Assembly (NCBI GenBank): GCA_050950105.1
Contig: JBMNGZ010000008.1
Coordinates: 121,416 to 185,415, forward strand
Reading direction: 5' to 3'
Source: Candidatus Hydrogenedentales bacterium
Lineage (GTDB): Bacteria > Hydrogenedentota > Hydrogenedentia > Hydrogenedentales > SLHB01
DNA: 64,000 nt
The number at the start of each line of letters is the position of its first letter. Position 1 is the stretch's first letter. The notes below the pieces were generated by a model. That model did not search any database, was not told where the DNA came from, and saw nothing but the letters and a program-made list of their open reading frames with translations. The position numbers were made by a program, and so were the translations under genes. This document shows positions 47,939-61,610 of the stretch, one piece after another.

Positions 47939-48643
47939 TCAAGGTTTCCTTATTCGGGCCGGCCGCAGCGCCGCCAGCAGGAAGGTGCGATAAATACGGT
48001 ACGAATCGCGTATCTTTTTGAAATGAGACGATCGATTGTCTTCCTCATAGATGGTGCGTATCGGTTCGGAGACCAGCCGGTAGTCTTCACGCGCCGCTTT
48101 GCTCAGTATGGCCATTTCGGTCTCGTAACGCCCGCCCGGGATCGCCGCCAGGACGTCTTCCAGGAACCGGCGTGAATGGATGCGGTACCCCGATTGCGTG
48201 TCGGGGATGGCCCGGCGAAGCAACACGCGCGTCAGGAGCGCCGTAACTGAATTGCCGAACCAGCTCGCCCACGGGACCTGGTCGCGTTCAAGCGTGCGCG
48301 CACCGATGAGCAGATCCGCCCGCTGCTCAACAAACGCCGCATACAGGCGCGGAAGCTCAGCAGGATCGTGTTGGCCGTCTGCATCAACAACGACCACCGC
48401 AGATATATCCGGCAGCTCCAGAGCGGCCTGGAACCCCGCCAGCATGGCGAATCCTTTGCCGCGGTTCTCGTGGAAGGCCAGGAGGGTGGCGCCCAAATCG
48501 CCCACGGACTGCGCCGATCCGTCCGTGCTCCCATCATCCACGATGAAGACCCGGTCCAGCAGGCCCTCGAGCTGCATGACCACGGCGCGGACGCGGCCGC
48601 CCGCATTGTAGCACGGGACTACTGCGGCGAGCTGCGTCCGCAT
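47939..48643 (-). CDS. Glycosyltransferase family 2
   Basis: [33 protein letters not shown]. Confidence 0.9.
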
Positions 48644-48847
48644 GGCGCGTGTACCCTGTCCAGCGTCGTCCATGGCCCGTATTGTAGCGTCACAACCCGT
48701 TTGCGGCAATCGGCCCGGCCGCGGGTTCTCTGCTGCCCCGCTGCGCCTGGCTGCCGGGTTTGCCGCGAGCTCATGGCGTTCCTGTATAATGATTTTCGAG
48801 AGTCTGGGAATCGGCAGCCAGTCCGAGCCGTGCAGAAGGGAAGAACC

Positions 48848-50125
48848 ATGTTTCCAAAGGCGAACGAAGCATTGATCGAGCAGGCCTATTTCAACGCGCA
48901 GGAAGTCTATGCGCAATTCGGCGTGGACACGGCGAAAGCCCTGGAGCGCCTGAGCGCAATCCCCATTTCCCTGCACTGCTGGCAGGGCGACGACGTGGCC
49001 GGTTTCGAACGCATCGAGGCGGCGTCTGGCGGCGGCATCCAGGCGACGGGCAACTATCCCGGCAAGGCGCGGACGCCCGATGAACTTCGCCAGGATGCTG
49101 AGAAAGCCTTGAGCCTCATTCCCGGCACGCATCGATTCAACGTGCACGCGATGTACGCCGAAACCGGTGGCAAAAAAGTTGAGCGAAATGAGATTCAGCC
49201 CGAACATTTTCAGGCGTGGATCGACTGGGCAAAAGCAAACGGACTGGGCATGGATTTCAATCCCACCTGTTTCGCTCACCCGAAAGCCGACGACGGCTTC
49301 ACCCTGTCGCACCACGATAAAGGCATCCGCGAGTTCTGGATTGAACACTGCATCGCATGCCGGAAGGTGGGGGAGCACATCGGCCGGTCTCTGGGCGCCC
49401 CGTCTGTCACCAATGTATGGGTTCCCGATGGGTTCAAAGATATCCCGGCGGACCGGCTGGCGCCTCGTGCCCGCCTGAAAGAATCGCTCGACACGGTGTT
49501 CGCGGAAGCCATTGAACCGAAATACAATCTGGATGCCGTCGAATCGAAACTCTTTGGGATCGGGTCCGAGTCCTATGTGGTGGGTTCGCACGAGTTCTAC
49601 CTGGGCTATGCCCTCACAAATCAGAAGCTGCTATGCCTGGATGCGGGCCATTTTCATCCCACCGAAGGTATTGCCGACAAGATCTCGTCGGTATTGCTGT
49701 TCCTCGACGAAATTCTGCTGCACGTGAGCCGCGGGGTGCGTTGGGACAGTGATCATGTCGTAATTCTCTCCGATGACTTGCGCGCTATTGCCGAGGAGGT
49801 AGTTCGGCACGATTATCTGAACCGGGTACACATTGGCCTGGATTTCTTTGATGCCAGTATCAACCGCGTTGCCGCGTGGGTCACCGGCACACGCGCTATG
49901 CTCCAGGCCGTGCTGCTCGCGCTGCTCGAACCGCGGGACAGACTGCTTGAACTGGAACTCGCCGGGGATTACACGGCCCGGCTTGCCCTGCTTGAAGCGT
50001 TGAAGACGTTGCCATTTGGCGCGGTGTGGGACTATTACTGCCGGAAACTTGAAGTGCCGGCCGGCTGCGCCTGGCTCAACGACGTAAAACAGTATGAGAA
50101 GGATGTGCTCGCGGCCCGGGGATAG
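48848..50125 (+). CDS. rhaA: L-rhamnose isomerase
   Basis: [60 protein letters not shown]. Confidence 0.96.
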
Positions 50126-54303: not shown

Positions 54304-57183
54304 TTAGACAAGTTGCTGGGTGCGGTTGATGACCATGTCCTGCCAATCTTTGGTCAGGGTGGCGAAACGGGCCGACCATCCCGCAATGCGAACCGACAGA
54401 TTGGGGTAGTTCTCGGGGTGCTGTTGCGCATCCAGGAGCATCGCCGAGTCAACCACATCCGTATGCATGAACCAGCCGCCAAGACTCACAAAGGTTCGCG
54501 ACAGCGCCACCATGGCATCGATGCCTGTCTCTCCTTTGACGCTGTCCGGATGCAGTTTGAGTTCCACGGTCGCGCCGTTGGGGCTGCGGGTAAAATCGAG
54601 TTTGCAGTACGATTTCAGGACCGCCGTGGGCCCTTCCCGGTCCGTTCCGGGCGATGGCGAACAGTTGGTCGCCAGTAGCTCGCCCCGCTGATGCCCGTCG
54701 GGTGACGGGCCGGTGTTCCGCCACTCGATTTCGCGGCCGAAGGTGCTGATACCCGCCGGGCGCAGGACGCCATGGCGCTCTTTTACCTCCGCCATAAGAT
54801 CCGTGTAGTCATTGAACACGCGGATGGCCATGGCGTCGGCTTCGTCGTCGTCGTTGCCGTAGAAGGTCGAGCGGTTCAGCACGCGGCGGCGAAGGTTTTC
54901 CTGGCCGTCCCAGTCGTTGCACACGATGTTCAGAAACTCGGGGAGCGTCAGGTGCTGCTCCTCGTACACCAGCTTCTTGATAACGTGCAGGCTGTTGGCG
55001 ACGTTTGCCAGACGGCCGATGTGTGCTGCAAATACCGTGTATACCGCGCCGCGATCGTAATAGGAGCGGCCGGATTCAATGCAGCCGTCAACGAACATGG
55101 ACACGAGCGGCGTGGGGATGCCATTCCGGGCCCAGCCGTCGGCCGCGCGGTGGTGGGCGTCGAGGGCCTGGGCCAGGCATTTGAGCCAGGTGGCGTAGAG
55201 GGCCTCGAAATCCGGAAAGTCCACCGGGTTGCCGCCGCGCAGGGCAAGCGCGTCCTGCAGAATGCTCAAACCGTCAAAGGGGCGGTAAATGAAACACGTC
55301 TTGCCGGGGATGATGGCCTCCCAGCAGCCGTCGTTGGCGAACGTGCGGGCCTCGTCAAGCGGATAGCCGAATTTGACCAGCCCGTCGATGGCGACTTCCT
55401 CGTTGTATGCGGCGACAATGCCGCCCCCGTGCCGCTGCACCTCCGCCATTCGGCGGAGCAGCCGCTCGGGTGAATGGCGATTGAGGCGTACCGCAATCGG
55501 GAAATCGCTGATGTGCAGTTCCTCGACCACGTCGAGAACCAGCCAGGTGACGTCGTTGGTGACGTCCGTTCCGTCGGGCCCAATCCCGCTGAGCACGATG
55601 TTCTGGTAATGCTGGGCATCGCCGGAGCCGCGGGTTTCAAAGGCGCCGATCCATTCGCAACCCTTGATCCAGAAATGGGCAAGCAGTTCGCGCGCCTCAT
55701 CCCGCGTGATGCGTCCTTCAGCCAGATCGCGTTTGAGATAGGGTCCCAGCATGGCGTCCAGGCGCCCGATACCCGACCAGGTACCCATAAGCCGCTGGAA
55801 TGCATACATGAACCACAGGGATTGCACGGCCTCTCGGAAAGTTTGAGGCGGGTTTTCGGGCACACGGCGCAAGGTTTCACGCACGTCGAGATAGTGCTGG
55901 CGTTCGGCGTCCGTGGATGTCTCCGCGAGGCGGGCCAGCTCGTCCATATGCCGCTGGTGCCACAGCTCCGCCGCATCCAGGCAGATCAGCATGGAATGCA
56001 GCAGGTCCTCGCTGGTGCGCGGGCCGGGGCTGAAATGGGCGGGATTACGGAGCTGCGACGCGTCTGTGAGGACGGGCCGCCCGTCCGCCTCGCCAACGCG
56101 CCAGAGACCGACGGTGTGGCTGTCCGCGGTCCAGGATTCGCCCGGCGCTGTTTCACGTACGACATTGGAGATGCGCACTTCCGCGATGGCGCCGCGGCAT
56201 CCGAGGTTGCCGGGCGGATATGCGCCGAAATACAGCGCGCCGGCCTCTACATCGGACGCATCCCTCGCGTGAACCGCCTCATCGGCGACGCATTCGCCGT
56301 CCACAAACAGGGCGACCCGCGCCCCGTCGAACGTCATGGCCAGCTCGTGCCAGGCGCCATCGGCAATGAAGCGCTGCGATTTGATCTCGGCGGGCGTATA
56401 ACCGGGCAAATACGCGCTGAAACAGCCCGTACCGGCATAGGAGTAGAGTTCCCAGTGCCGGCGGCTCTCTTTGTTGCGGTTCAGCACCAGGACGTTGAAT
56501 CCGTCCTTGGACTCAATCCGGGCGCGGCATTCCACGGTAAGCGGCGGCGTATCGTATGCCGCACGGGGAGCGGCCGCGGCCCAGTGCGCAGCCTGGCCGC
56601 TGGTGCTGAATATCCGACCCTGCGGGCCATCAGCCAGAAACCCGGGTGTGGCGGATGAATTATCAAACCCGCCCCGGGCCAGACGTTCCTCAATGCGGCG
56701 CCGCAGTCCTTGGTACCCTTCGTTCAGCACCCGGTCGAAGCCCAGGGTCGTGTGGCTGACGCTTGAAATGCCGGCTACGGGCGTCTGATGCGCCGCGGCC
56801 TCGATCAGCGTCGCCGAACCCACGACTTTCTCGCCGGGGAGAATGCGGATCGGCGCGTGTTCCGCGACCAGTTGACAGGCTTTCGCGTACCGGATGTCCG
56901 GCGACAGCGACGCCATCGCGCTCTCATCGAGCGAGACACCCGCTTTTACCATCGAACGGCCGTGCTCGCCGGCGATGGCCCGCGCCGCCAGTTCATGAGT
57001 CGCAGCCGACAGCCTTTGGGGCGAAGCAGGCCGCCACGCCGCGCCCCAGCGCTTCAATGAAGCCTCGGCCTGCGTGTGCGCCGCTGCACCACCCATCCAA
57101 TACAAGCCGCCGCCCAGCGCGGTCATCCGCGACACGGCGCCAACGAAATCCCTGCGGCTGATGCTCTTCTTCTGTCCCGGCAT
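54304..57183 (-). CDS. PFL-family glycyl-radical-type enzyme with Tat signal and inserted LamG-like domain
   Basis: SRRDFVG plus hydrophobic stretch and AxA. PPQTFREAVQSLW, GRLDAML, Cys loop DGCWE, Gly loop VRIAGWSARF. LamG-like TVEC, DGAWHELAMTFDG..LFVDG, GAIAEVRIS. Confidence 0.82.
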   Translation of the reverse strand: MPGQKKSISRRDFVGAVSRMTALGGGLYWMGGAAAHTQAEASLKRWGAAWRPASPQRLSAATHELAARAIAGEHGRSMVKAGVSLDESAMASLSPDIRYAKACQLVAEHAPIRILPGEKVVGSATLIEAAAHQTPVAGISSVSHTTLGFDRVLNEGYQGLRRRIEERLARGGFDNSSATPGFLADGPQGRIFSTSGQAAHWAAAAPRAAYDTPPLTVECRARIESKDGFNVLVLNRNKESRRHWELYSYAGTGCFSAYLPGYTPAEIKSQRFIADGAWHELAMTFDGARVALFVDGECVADEAVHARDASDVEAGALYFGAYPPGNLGCRGAIAEVRISNVVRETAPGESWTADSHTVGLWRVGEADGRPVLTDASQLRNPAHFSPGPRTSEDLLHSMLICLDAAELWHQRHMDELARLAETSTDAERQHYLDVRETLRRVPENPPQTFREAVQSLWFMYAFQRLMGTWSGIGRLDAMLGPYLKRDLAEGRITRDEARELLAHFWIKGCEWIGAFETRGSGDAQHYQNIVLSGIGPDGTDVTNDVTWLVLDVVEELHISDFPIAVRLNRHSPERLLRRMAEVQRHGGGIVAAYNEEVAIDGLVKFGYPLDEARTFANDGCWEAIIPGKTCFIYRPFDGLSILQDALALRGGNPVDFPDFEALYATWLKCLAQALDAHHRAADGWARNGIPTPLVSMFVDGCIESGRSYYDRGAVYTVFAAHIGRLANVANSLHVIKKLVYEEQHLTLPEFLNIVCNDWDGQENLRRRVLNRSTFYGNDDDEADAMAIRVFNDYTDLMAEVKERHGVLRPAGISTFGREIEWRNTGPSPDGHQRGELLATNCSPSPGTDREGPTAVLKSYCKLDFTRSPNGATVELKLHPDSVKGETGIDAMVALSRTFVSLGGWFMHTDVVDSAMLLDAQQHPENYPNLSVRIAGWSARFATLTKDWQDMVINRTQQLV

Positions 57184-57339
57184 ACAACGCCTCCTGTCCG
57201 ATCGGGTATAAAGACAGCCCGACGCATAACGATTGTACACGATGACACGGCGGTATTCCTGTCTGAATGAACGTTCAGGTCTGACCGCGTCGCTGTGTTA
57301 CCGTCGTCCGCGCTGTTCAGGATGCCGCCCGGCCGGCAT

Positions 57340-59358
57340 TTATCTGGTCACGGCCATCATCACGCTGTGAGGGGGCAGAGAGAACAAAACACGTTCGCCC
57401 AGACGCTTCCTCTCTTCCACGCTTCGGGAAATGGCGTCGGGCTGGTCGGCGGTATTGAACGACCCGGGAGACGCTGCGGTCAGGGTGACCAGCTCGGCCC
57501 GGGAGCGTGCGAAACCCGGTGCAGACAGCTCCCAGGACAGGTCGACCGTTTCACCGTGGAAATTGAGCGCAATGAGGAGCAGGTGCTCGCGGGAGGCGTC
57601 GTAAGCGGCCTGCGCCACCACCGCAGAGTCTTCGCCTTCCATCTCCAGCCGAAGCGGCCAGGCGGCGGGATTGGCCGAAAACAGTTCGAATACCCTGCCC
57701 GTTGCGGAAAGGTAAGCGCCTTCTTTCGGACATTCGAGCACGTTCTGGCCCCAGGCATTGGCCAGATTGCTGAAATTGGCGAAGGCAAACTCTCCACCCA
57801 GGCGCTGGAACAGCAGAACTTGTCTCGCTGCATCCATCGCATCGCCCCAGCGCAGCGCCCGATTCTGGAGCACCGTCTCACGCTGGTCCGATGAGGCTGG
57901 AGCGTCGTTACCCGGAGCCCGCCATTCGGTGTTGCACAGCCGGATGCCGCGGCCCGCCCGGGCGTTGTATTCGCGCAGCGTTTCGAGCACGCCGCGGAGC
58001 CGATCCTCGTCAAGCTCCCGGTCGGCAACGAAATCGATATGGGGGCCGGCAATCTCGAGCATCTGCGGCAAAAAGGCATGAAAACGCCAATAAACAGCCA
58101 TGATCACTTGTATGCCGGGCGCGGCGGCTTTCATCGCCCGGGCAAAATCGACGCAGCGCCGGGCGTATTCGAGGGCATCGTATTTCCGGTACGGTTCGTT
58201 GCCAAGCTCCCAATACGTGACGCCGAACGGCTCGGCGTGCCCGTGCAAGGCGCGCAGTGCACCTTGGGGATGTTCCGCCGGAGCATTGCAGTAGGCGGCC
58301 CAGTCTGCAGCTTCCGCGGGGCTGCCGGTCAGGACATTGACGCAGATCAGCGGTTCCGCGCCGATTTCACGGCACAAAGCGGTGAATTCGGCTGTCCCGA
58401 CGTCGTTATTTTCCAGTCCGCCCCAATAGGGGCTTTCGCGGGGCCGGCGTTCGTCTACCGGGCCGATACCGTCGCGCCAGAAATAAAACGATGCAGAGCA
58501 GCCGCCTGGCCAGCGCAGGACGCCAGGGCGCACCCGCCTCAGCGCGTCGATTGCGTCGCGCCGCCAGCCCTCCACATTGTCTGAGGGCATCAGCGAGAGG
58601 CCGTCGAGGGCAAGTGTGATGCCCGGGGGGACGGTGATGCCCAGCATTGCGGGGCCTTGGTAATCACTGCCGGGTAATTCGCATTCAAGTTGCTGCCAGG
58701 AGTTCCCGATCCCGCGCAGGGTGCCGGTGGCCAGCGGGCTGTCGGTTCGGCTCTCCTCGTACAGGCCCACGGTGACATGGATCGCTGGCGTCTCCGGCTC
58801 CATCAACTCCCCGTGTCTCACATAACCGCGAAGACGGTAGGACATCCCCTTGCGCAGCCAGAGCCCGTCCTGTGCCAGGATCGCCGTGGAGGTATTATTG
58901 CGATTGGTCACATGCGCCGAACGTTCTCCGTGTCGAAAATCCCGGTACGCTGAATAGCCCAAATGGGCCTCGGGGTTACCTGGAGCGATGTACCAATCCG
59001 CTTCCTTATAGCCCGAATGCCACCAATCTTCGGTACTCAGATCATCGTCCGGTCTGCGGTGCAGCCACCCCCATACGGATTCCTTGAAAGGCGTGACTTG
59101 TTCAAAGCTGCGGTTAAACAGCATCTCCGCCCACAGACCATCAAGCTGGCGCCCGAATCCGCTCTGGATAAGATGGCCGTAGAGCAGAGGAGAGGCGGGC
59201 TCGGGCATAAGCTCATCGGGGGTCACAACCACCCGGAGGGGCGGCCGGGCCGCGTCGGAGGGGACGCGTCGCTCCCGGGAGGCCGCGAACGACGTGGCCG
59301 GCAGGACCAAAAGGAGGAAGAGCAGCGCGCCCCGTTGCAATCTACCCGGAATGTCCAT
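57340..59358 (-). CDS. Secreted GH51 alpha-L-arabinofuranosidase-like protein
   Basis: Signal peptide, GLWAEMLFNRSFE, LRWPGGC, WRDGIGP, YWELGNE, NTEW. Confidence 0.85.
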   Translation of the reverse strand: MDIPGRLQRGALLFLLLVLPATSFAASRERRVPSDAARPPLRVVVTPDELMPEPASPLLYGHLIQSGFGRQLDGLWAEMLFNRSFEQVTPFKESVWGWLHRRPDDDLSTEDWWHSGYKEADWYIAPGNPEAHLGYSAYRDFRHGERSAHVTNRNNTSTAILAQDGLWLRKGMSYRLRGYVRHGELMEPETPAIHVTVGLYEESRTDSPLATGTLRGIGNSWQQLECELPGSDYQGPAMLGITVPPGITLALDGLSLMPSDNVEGWRRDAIDALRRVRPGVLRWPGGCSASFYFWRDGIGPVDERRPRESPYWGGLENNDVGTAEFTALCREIGAEPLICVNVLTGSPAEAADWAAYCNAPAEHPQGALRALHGHAEPFGVTYWELGNEPYRKYDALEYARRCVDFARAMKAAAPGIQVIMAVYWRFHAFLPQMLEIAGPHIDFVADRELDEDRLRGVLETLREYNARAGRGIRLCNTEWRAPGNDAPASSDQRETVLQNRALRWGDAMDAARQVLLFQRLGGEFAFANFSNLANAWGQNVLECPKEGAYLSATGRVFELFSANPAAWPLRLEMEGEDSAVVAQAAYDASREHLLLIALNFHGETVDLSWELSAPGFARSRAELVTLTAASPGSFNTADQPDAISRSVEERKRLGERVLFSLPPHSVMMAVTR

Positions 59359-59631: not shown

Positions 59632-59736
59632 CTGGCACTTTCGCGGCCACATCGGGCAACGCAAACGCCTATTAGACCCGAGCCGCGAAGAGGTTTGCAA
59701 ACGCAACGGCTGAACAGGCCGGCAAAGGAGCTGAAC

Positions 59737-60684
59737 ATGCACAAACGAATACGCGCCGTGGGGTTTACTTTGATCGAATTACTGGTGGTGATCGCCATCA
59801 TCGGTATATTGGCGGCTATTTTGCTGCCGGCGCTGGCTCGTGCCCGCGAAGCAGCGCGCCGGGCTTCTTGCGCCAACAACCTGAAACAGATCGGGCTGAT
59901 GCTCAAAATGTACTCCAACGAAGCGAGGGGAGAGAAATTTCCGCCCATGCTCCGGTATACCTCCTTGTCGGATCCGGATGATCCGACGACGTACGTATCA
60001 CAGTGCGGCCTGACAAATCCGCCGATGAGCCCCTTGCTGGGCGGCGATGCGGAATTTATCTTTGATGGCCCGTCCGTGTACCCCGAGTACCTGACCGATC
60101 CCAGCGTGGTCGTGTGTCCGTCGGATTCGTCGGCAGCGAGCGAGGTGGAGGCTGGCCGCTTCAACGTGGACGGCGACCCCAACGGCGTCCTCGATCCCTG
60201 CGCAATATCGGCCATTTCGTATATGTATGTGGCCTGGGCGCTCCAGGGGAAAGAAGACTACATGAATGTGGGGAGTGAAGAGAATGACAGCTACGGCTGG
60301 TCGGCTTTTGGCACGCCAGACACGGTATCAGCCGATTTCATCCTCGCGATCTTCAACGTCTTGACAGAATCCGCCGATGGAAATCCGGATATTTTTGAGC
60401 AGGACGTCACCTATGACAATGATTACGGCACCCGGACGCTCTACCGGCTTCGTGAGGGAGTGGAGCGGTTCTTCGTGACCGACATCAACAATCCCGCAGG
60501 CTCGGCACTGGCGCAGAGCCAGGTGCCCGTCATGTGGGACTTGCTCAGCACCGAAGTGTCGAAATTTAATCACGTCCCCGGTGGAAGCAACGTGCTGTAC
60601 ATGGACGGTCATGTCGAGTTCATGCGATTCCCCGGCGAATTTCCAGTTACCCGGGCCTTCGCGGGCGTGATCTCGGCCTTCTAG
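59737..60684 (+). CDS. DUF1559 prepilin-type N-terminal cleavage protein with H-X9-DG motif
   Basis: [43 protein letters not shown] and [19 protein letters not shown]. Confidence 0.93.
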
Positions 60685-60776: not shown

Positions 60777-61610
60777 CTATTCGTCGAATTTGAGAATTTC
60801 GACCTTACGGAACTCGACGGGATGGCTCTCGGACTGGAGCGAGATCGTGCCGCCCGTTAACAAAGAAGCCTGTCCTGCTTCAAGGAGTTTTTGAGCGTCT
60901 TTGTCGCCATCGTCGAGCTGCGGGTCAGTGTAGCTCAGGACAAGCTCTCCGTTGATGAAGTGTTTGATCGCATTGCCGCGCACCTCCACTTCGGCGGTGA
61001 CCCACTGATCGCCATGGAAGGTCTTTGAAGACGAGTTGATGCAATGCTTCGTTTCGAGTTTGCCGTCAATCACGATGTGCGTGCCCGGCGTGCACACGTT
61101 GCCGGTGCTGCGCTCGCCCGACCCGGAACCGCCCAGCAGCTGCACTTCGATGGACACCGGAAAACTCTGGTCTTTTCCCATGCTCTGAGGCGTTTGGCCA
61201 TGGATCATGATACCGCTGTTCCGGAAGGCCCAGCCGGCCCCGCCCTCGATCTGGTCTCCCACAAACCGGTATTCCACCCGCAGCCGGTAGTTCGAAAACG
61301 GTTCCTTGTAGAACAGGTGCCCGAACTGGTCGTCAAACGGACCGTATCCGTCGTAGCTCACCTTAAGAATGCCATCTTCCACACGGAAGGTGTTGGCGTA
61401 GTTGTCACCGCACTCGTGTTTGGCTATTTTCGGGATCCAGCCATCGAGGTTCTTGCCGTTAAACAGGCTGACCCATTTCTCTTTGGGCGCGGCTTCGTCT
61501 TCGGCCCGGGCCATCGGGGCGGTCGATGCCAGGCAGACCGCGCAGAGCAGCGCCAACCAGCCCAAGCCATTCCGGGCACAATGGCCATTGAACAATCGAG
61601 TCATTTTCAT
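60777..61610 (-). CDS. DUF1080 (3-keto-disaccharide hydrolase-like) secreted protein
   Basis: WVSLFNGKNLDGW, NSGIM, IEVQL, GTISLQSESHPVEFRKV. Confidence 0.88.
   Translation of the reverse strand: MKMTRLFNGHCARNGLGWLALLCAVCLASTAPMARAEDEAAPKEKWVSLFNGKNLDGWIPKIAKHECGDNYANTFRVEDGILKVSYDGYGPFDDQFGHLFYKEPFSNYRLRVEYRFVGDQIEGGAGWAFRNSGIMIHGQTPQSMGKDQSFPVSIEVQLLGGSGSGERSTGNVCTPGTHIVIDGKLETKHCINSSSKTFHGDQWVTAEVEVRGNAIKHFINGELVLSYTDPQLDDGDKDAQKLLEAGQASLLTGGTISLQSESHPVEFRKVEILKFDE

Follow-up and report, generated by a model that had tools for sequence, protein, structure and literature searches.

Glycyl radical enzymes (GREs) carry a radical that is installed by an activase dependent on S-adenosylmethionine (SAM) and a reductant and that is destroyed by oxygen, and to our knowledge all described GREs are cytoplasmic. 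Whether an enzyme of this kind can be made for export is the question raised by a gene in a 64,000-nucleotide stretch of the genome of a Candidatus Hydrogenedentales bacterium (GenBank assembly GCA_050950105.1, contig JBMNGZ010000008.1, positions 121,416 to 185,415 of the forward strand; hereafter the window), which encodes a GRE preceded by a predicted twin-arginine signal peptide and interrupted by a LamG domain. The reading that most reasonably fits our observations, and to which we give a probability of roughly 0.6, is that the gene encodes a real GRE from a subfamily that is mostly twin-arginine-tagged, and that the enzyme receives its radical in the cytoplasm and is then exported, already folded, by the twin-arginine translocation (Tat) pathway. 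In the part of the full-text literature that was consulted, subscription journals aside, we found no exported or signal-bearing GRE and no GRE with a LamG domain.

The window gene and its product

The GRE gene is a single open reading frame (ORF) on the minus strand of the window (54304-57183; 959 codons and a stop). Its ATG (57183-57181) follows a Shine-Dalgarno-like GGAGG read from the sequence 6 nt to the 5′ side (57190-57194, minus strand), and an alternative GTG-initiated frame from 57240, which would add 19 residues, has no comparable site. The N-terminus, MPGQKKSISRRDFVGAVSRMTALGGGLYWMGGAAAHTQAEA, runs from a basic head through SRRDFVG (residues 9-15, 57139-57159) and an uncharged core to AEA (residues 39-41), and residues 1-41 (57061-57183, minus strand) are predicted to be a twin-arginine signal peptide from the translation, the score against TIGR01409 and conservation in relatives; the succession of motif, core and A-x-A end is that of Tat substrates with an S/T-R-R-x-F-L-K-type motif. 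Behind the signal, and likewise on the minus strand, come the N-terminal helical segment of the GRE (residues 42-180, 56644-57060, placed by profile alignment), which includes His144 (codon 56752-56754, within SVSHTTLGF); the inserted LamG or concanavalin-A-like domain (residues ~181-390, 56014-56643, delimited by Pfam, the model and comparison with insert-free relatives); the ten-stranded barrel core (residues 391-837, 54673-56013, from the Pfam PFL-like match and Foldseek), with the Cys loop DGCWE at residues 618-622 (55318-55332); and the glycyl radical domain (residues 838-959 and stop, 54304-54672, from Pfam Gly_radical), where Gly935 sits in RIAGW (54376-54390). The underlying Pfam matches are PFL-like (PF02901; residues 391-813, profile positions 195-638, 321 bits), Gly_radical (PF01228; residues 838-940, 85.7 bits) and Laminin_G_3 (PF13385; residues 206-343, 52.7 bits against a cut-off of 27.6). 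An earlier note on this DNA had pointed to the SRRDFVG motif with an AxA site, to a LamG insert at about 56020-56660 and to a retained Cys loop and Gly loop; motif, uncharged stretch, AEA and both loops are all read in the translation, and the position of the insert matches that obtained from the insert-free relatives.

The AlphaFold model of the full-length protein, built from 89 relatives, has a mean predicted local distance difference test score (pLDDT) of 89.2 and a predicted template modelling score (pTM) of 0.86. Its pLDDT falls below 50 only at residues 1-47 and 937-939, which places residues 1-47 outside the GRE fold. The domain parsing that had been proposed in the earlier note returns both a GRE fold and a LamG beta sandwich. 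Foldseek ranks the 1,2-propanediol dehydratase 5i2g (E 6e-40, TM-score 0.76 on the target) and the glycerol dehydratase 1r8w as the top folds. These B12-independent diol dehydratases (5i2a/5i2g from Roseburia inulinivorans, 1r8w from Clostridium butyricum) are the best PDB sequence matches of the window GRE (profile E 1e-118 and 1e-113) as well as the best folds (TM-score ~0.76-0.77 on the target), yet share only ~20-22% identity with it over the structural alignment, and unlike it they have neither a signal peptide nor a LamG insert. Their catalytic His, G-C-x-E Cys loop and Gly motif all align with the window GRE, as do the His, Cys-x-Glu and Gly motifs of HypD (trans-4-hydroxy-L-proline dehydratase, 6vxc), which also lacks signal and LamG. 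Specifically, the family profile A1 aligns His144 with His166 of 5i2a, His164 of 1r8w and chain His180 of 6vxc, Cys620-Trp-Glu622 with the G-C-V-E loops of all three, and Gly935 with their radical glycine. His144, Cys620, Glu622 and Gly935, which we take to play the catalytic roles assigned to these residues in diol dehydratases, are invariant in the 89-sequence alignment. Furthermore, the 120 nearest protein clusters, the best from a search of 5.8 billion proteins, all have GCWE, a form of the G-C-x-E loop that in the dehydratase clade supplies a general-base Glu, and 117 of them have the Gly motif; RIAGW itself fits the GRE glycine radical motif R-V/I-x-G-[FWY].

We conclude that the window gene encodes a genuine GRE of the diol-dehydratase/1,2-eliminase type, in an uncharacterised subfamily. 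The nearest NCBIfam model, TIGR01774 (PFL2/glycerol dehydratase subfamily), scores 352 bits against a cut-off of 678, and the second, HypD, 328 bits against an equivalog cut-off of 1100; no named NCBIfam equivalog is reached (HypD, HpsG/HpfG, CutC, indoleacetate decarboxylase, HPAD, PFL), and the rest score below HypD. Ser470 of the window GRE takes the position of His281 in glycerol dehydratase and of an Asp (chain residue 298) in HypD, the latter binding the substrate amine, and the substrate pocket therefore differs from those of the characterised enzymes. A further comparison is offered by the sugar-phosphate dehydratases YbiW/PflD (8id7, 8id0, 8yjo), which belong to the same GRE clade at ~28-29% identity and, unlike the window GRE, have no signal and no LamG. 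Their entry titles name 1,5-anhydroglucitol-6-phosphate and 1,5-anhydromannitol-6-phosphate, which indicates that substrates derived from sugars are used within the clade and, as these substrates are phosphorylated, implies a cytoplasmic role for YbiW/PflD.

The twin-arginine signal in relatives

Of the 120 nearest clusters, 88 show the pattern RRx[FLIVMW] before the conserved RLS..T..LA anchor; the share is 44 of 46 among LamG-sized proteins and 44 of 74 among short ones. In several of the other clusters the motif is a near-variant (SRREFQQ, PRRVFGV), or the sequence opens within the hydrophobic core and looks like a mis-called start. A scan of one genome per GTDB species gave at least 737 pattern matches and at least 660 confirmed relatives, of which the best 77 are the basis for all locus-level counts given here. 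These 77 loci span Hydrogenedentota, Planctomycetota/Phycisphaerae, Armatimonadota/Chthonomonadales, Lentisphaerota/Victivallales, Bacteroidota, Anaerolineales, Verrucomicrobiota and Clostridiales, with the isolate Alistipes hominis New-7 (locus L040, Bacteroidota) as a cultured carrier. A canonical twin-arginine (RR) signal is present in 30 and a single-Arg form in 12, with neither in 35, four of which (L030, L036, L052, L053) are cut by contig ends. The single-Arg loci (L040, L059, L062, L063, L071, L074, L075, L078, L080, L081, L087, L088) are all from one subclade of Bacteroidota and read SR[SAKG][ED]FLK (SRSEFLK, SRAEFLK, SRKEFLK and similar) followed by a hydrophobic core, so that apart from the missing Arg the signal is retained. 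Of the 30 RR-type relatives, 18 pass the TIGR01409 cut-off, and the N-termini of several relatives give weak matches to models of cofactor-bearing Tat substrates.

A tree of the C-terminal ~500 residues, from which signal and insert were excluded (68 rows, quick LG+G4; L031, L038, L039, L041, L058, L067, L070, L076, L080 and L084 left out for truncation, internal stops or a missing motif), splits at 99% support into a clade of 49 and a signal-less clade of 19. The clade of 49 covers Hydrogenedentota, Planctomycetota, Armatimonadota and Bacteroidota and holds 30 RR, 11 single-Arg and 8 signal-less members, 3 of these 8 being cut by contig ends. Signal state requires five changes on the tree, against a mean of ~21 for the signal-less label under label shuffling. 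The pairing of RR motif and GRE is not due to chance, since it recurs in 88 of 120 clusters and is clustered on the tree. As the starts of signal-less relatives fall at about the predicted mature N-terminus, the signal appears to be a modular, selected add-on. Judged by sequence, then, the twin-arginine-type signal is a conserved trait of this GRE subfamily and not an oddity of one genome. The earlier note had named a lack of the signal in homologues as grounds for refutation; most keep it, although a signal-less sister clade does exist.

These comparisons also bear on the possibility that the signal is an annotation artefact and that translation starts downstream, for example at Met30, to give a cytoplasmic protein. 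Met30 does lie about where the signal-less relatives begin, but it is not conserved, being absent from P0005 and P0010, and the GGAGG stands 6 nt ahead of the ATG at 57183. The N-terminal peptide is moreover conserved at the protein level in diverged relatives, and the region is intact in independent assemblies. We give this possibility scarcely any credence, and the related concern of the earlier note, a true start downstream of the RR motif, largely falls away before the same GGAGG and the same conserved peptide.

The activase and the case for a working radical

The earlier note had remarked on the lack of a nearby activase. This is true of the window, as none of the seven TIGR02494 matches of the genome lies within it (C8:121416-185415), but the genome search that the note had proposed recovers one bona fide GRE activase elsewhere. 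In the genome (4.6 Mb, 92% complete) the window gene is the only PFL-like match, and a single TIGR02494 match exceeds the curated cut-off (319 bits, contig C4); this activase carries CxxxCxxC and two ferredoxin-type cysteine motifs. The diol dehydratases, too, depend on a radical-SAM activase with extra ferredoxin-like clusters. The C4 activase (L009:9865-12816; G000 C4:209364-212315) is an orphan whose neighbours are a GAF-domain gene and an rve-family transposase, and two sulfatase genes lie 3-5 kb from it; transposition may have parted it from the GRE gene.

Among the related loci, a tblastn search with the C4 activase gives matches in 28 of 77, and 16 of the 28 have an RR-signal GRE. In 14 of these the GRE stop is followed after 9-131 nt by the activase gene on the same strand, including the LamG-bearing Hydrogenedentota loci L022 and L028. 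The lack of an activase in the other loci says little, because many are short contigs. The activase frames in related loci open a few residues before a conserved G-x-V-F-D-I-Q-R-F, which leaves no room for a signal peptide. This association of a signal-less activase with signal-bearing GREs fits one of the two options put forward in the earlier note, activation before folded Tat export, in so far as export itself is accepted. Among 50 related genomes, an activase is found in all 50 at E<=1e-30 and is above the TIGR02494 cut-off in 48. One Gly_radical match and one activase match are seen in 13 of the 50, and five of these 13 (the genomes of L017, L032, L037, L042 and L072) carry RR-type enzymes. 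The sole activase of such a one-GRE genome can only serve the signal-bearing GRE, which argues strongly against a repurposed, non-radical protein.

That other option of the note, an exported protein that is never activated and has been turned to non-radical glycan binding or glycan processing, draws on the missing activase of the window and on the presence of the LamG insert. It must be set against the one activase and one GRE match of the genome, the activase directly downstream in 14 RR-type relatives (LamG-bearing ones among them) and its retention in 50 of 50 related genomes. With His, Cys, Glu and Gly invariant in 89 sequences and the activase paired with the GRE, we consider non-radical repurposing very unlikely.

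Some related genomes have many GREs: Gly_radical matches number 21 in G046, 18 in G035 and 15 in G049 (the genomes of L066, L035 and L083, respectively). The G046 and G035 loci are labelled Victivallales, and the L083 record is labelled 'uncultured bacterium'. These counts suggest a paralogue expansion of GREs in glycan specialists.

The LamG insert

The insert begins ~35 residues past the catalytic His, and relatives of ~750 residues lack the segment corresponding to residues ~181-390 altogether. Modelled alone, the domain forms a beta sandwich (pTM 0.79), for which Foldseek returns 176 matches in the PDB (E<=0.001) with LamG and pentraxin folds at their head; the best LamG fold match is 4dqa (E 4e-7), a putative carbohydrate binding protein of Bacteroides ovatus. 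The LamG and pentraxin matches come mostly from extracellular proteins. A search of the ESM Atlas, which holds no model of the window protein, gave only LamG look-alikes with scores of at most 0.83. The insert is present in 11 Hydrogenedentota-type loci and is specific to Hydrogenedentota.

The metagenome-assembled genome (MAG) of a Chthonomonadales member (L041) encodes a separate 483-residue LamG+FIST protein, whose N-terminal LamG domain is 52% identical to the window insert. In this locus (L041:9989-18891) the LamG+FIST gene lies 4 nt after the gene of a GRE that has an RR signal but no insert, and a gene for a 1729-residue GH2-like protein comes next. As a single case, this gives a weak Rosetta-stone hint that GRE and LamG modules work together.

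A model for activation and export

Our model of a cytoplasmically activated, Tat-exported GRE is as follows, with export, its order relative to activation, the cleavage site, the class of substrate and the role of the LamG domain being what we infer. The window GRE would fold in the cytoplasm, where the single GRE activase of the genome, a radical-SAM enzyme without a signal peptide, would install the radical on Gly935. The folded and already active GRE would then cross the inner membrane via Tat, and the signal would be cut after AEA41. In an anoxic periplasm, the thiyl radical of Cys620 would abstract hydrogen from a hydroxylated carbon of the substrate, with Glu622 and His144 assisting in the loss of the neighbouring leaving group in a 1,2-elimination of the diol-dehydratase type. 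The LamG insert would hold a glycan or other ligand close to the GRE.

The logic of this model, cytoplasmic maturation followed by folded export, is that of known Tat substrates. Periplasmic hydrogenases, molybdoenzymes and the NADP-bound glucose-fructose oxidoreductase are loaded with cofactor in the cytoplasm and then exported, and they have N-termini of the RRxFLK type. These enzymes carry a bound cofactor, however, whereas the window GRE would carry a protein-based radical, and we know of no case in which such a radical is carried through Tat. The genome has a TatC match, although a split one, and a scan of it for an RR motif and an uncharged stretch near the N-terminus returns 79 ORFs, many of which resemble Gfo/Idh/MocA-type oxidoreductases by their subsequent motif. 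Furthermore, DNA matching the organism at high identity occurs in 20 runs from 12 studies of anaerobic digesters, bioreactors, landfill and wastewater, and a contig from one such run spans the GRE gene with substitutions only within the coding sequence. In such anoxic surroundings the chief objection to an exposed glycyl radical no longer applies. No RNA data set is listed as containing this sequence, and one run labelled RNA-Seq, X10, is probably DNA.

A more specific proposal, that the radical is made in the cytoplasm, carried by Tat and put to work in the periplasm on glycans, or on diols derived from them, with LamG as a glycan-holding module, we regard as tentative and, as a whole, rather improbable. 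Candidate reactions would be, for instance, the dehydration of a sugar residue or the elimination of a glycosidic or sulfate leaving group, and glycoside hydrolases, lyases and sulfatases of the periplasm would thereby have a counterpart that works with a radical. More broadly, and independently of this specific proposal, a widespread and conserved clade of GREs with Tat signals would mean that a protein radical can survive translocation and act outside the cytoplasm, and the window GRE may be the first GRE working in the periplasm. This would open a new compartment to anaerobic radical chemistry, define a new class of Tat cargo and possibly add an unrecognised step to anaerobic polysaccharide breakdown. 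Among the members of the signal-bearing clade are gut Bacteroidota as well as glycan degraders that abound in digesters and sediments.

Export weighed against a cytoplasmic location

Several observations weigh against export. The first 50 residues of the window GRE score 15.9 bits against TIGR01409 TAT_signal_seq, just below the cut-off of 16.7, making its own signal borderline by that model, and the Pfam TAT_signal model gives no match to this N-terminus. Nine of the 30 RR-type relatives also fall below the TIGR01409 cut-off and 3 have no match, while none of the 12 single-Arg forms passes and the LamG-sized relative P0103 has no signal. Should the single-Arg signals of Bacteroidota be routed through Sec, installing the radical ahead of export would be impossible. 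The sister clade without the signal is ~60% identical and has the same catalytic core, so GRE chemistry does not need export. The periplasm lacks SAM and reductant, and a GRE quenched there could not be re-activated. Only one TatC gene is found in the genome, matched in two overlapping frames (C1:329499-329963 and 329948-330256, together 329499-330256) that cover profile positions 1-112 and 108-208; the split reflects a frameshift or else an error of assembly. A heme-copper oxidase (COX1) match, weak at 74 bits and also in two frames (G000 C9:1842-3148), indicates that the organism may meet oxygen, and a related reductase or some form of respiration involving oxygen may be present. Finally, when the ORFs of the 77 loci were clustered and Pfam was run on 19 and then on 107 neighbours, no conserved neighbour pointed to a substrate.

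The alternative best served by these observations is a normal cytoplasmic GRE whose RR N-terminus may be vestigial or may serve to bind a chaperone, the activase or the membrane, a part that remnant Tat motifs play in certain redox enzymes of the cytoplasm. It agrees with the cytoplasmic location of all GREs that we know to have been described, with the close sister clade that has no signal, with the loss of the second Arg in 12 Bacteroidota loci, with the sub-threshold score of the window signal and with the lack of any means of re-activation in the periplasm. What it explains less readily is why motif, uncharged core and small-residue end are kept together across phyla, in 30 of the 68 tree rows, with 18 of the 30 passing TIGR01409. 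Residues 1-47 lie outside the fold, and the signal-less relatives simply lack the N-terminal segment. Nor is there a chaperone-like gene among the conserved neighbours of the 77 loci, and the LamG folds resemble those of mostly extracellular proteins. We therefore judge a cytoplasmic location unlikely, though the most serious of the alternatives considered here.

Two further properties were tried and set aside. TatC is present in 46 of the 50 related genomes whatever their signal type, and its presence was rejected as a discriminator. Known diol dehydratases are cytoplasmic and some are housed in microcompartments; no bacterial microcompartment (BMC) shell gene (PF00936) was found in the 92% complete genome, and none was seen among annotated neighbours, so microcompartment targeting was rejected.

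Substrate, neighbouring genes and minor observations

Besides the activase, the neighbours that recur in the 77 loci are AraC (9 loci), IclR (6), sulfatase (5) and iron-containing alcohol dehydrogenase (4), and carbohydrate-active enzymes are only sporadic. As only regulators, sulfatase and iron-containing alcohol dehydrogenase recur in this way, an assignment of the substrate from gene context was rejected. Our guess is a diol or a sugar-like compound. In the window itself, a GH51-like protein of the arabinofuranosidase type is encoded upstream of the GRE gene (57340-59358, minus strand), with matches to Alpha-L-AF_C (38 bits), ASD1_dom and CBM_4_9. The earlier note had described a secreted GH51 gene here on the same strand, and its weak GH51-type domains and Sec-type signal agree with that description. 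Neighbours that cluster with this protein occur in only 2 loci, and it is no conserved partner of the GRE.

RR-signal GREs are also present in the order Chthonomonadales, the cultured type species of which is aerobic, at L054 (a MAG labelled Chthonomonas calidirosea), L046 and L048; a rubrerythrin gene lies just downstream in L054. Elsewhere in the window, a DUF1559/N-methyl (type IV pilin-like) protein is encoded at 59695-60684 on the plus strand and a 3-keto-disaccharide hydrolase family protein at 60777-61610 on the minus strand. An L-rhamnose isomerase (RhaA) is encoded at 48368-50125 on the plus strand; its frame overlaps a GT2-like ORF on the opposite strand, and given this overlap the true start of RhaA is probably further downstream.

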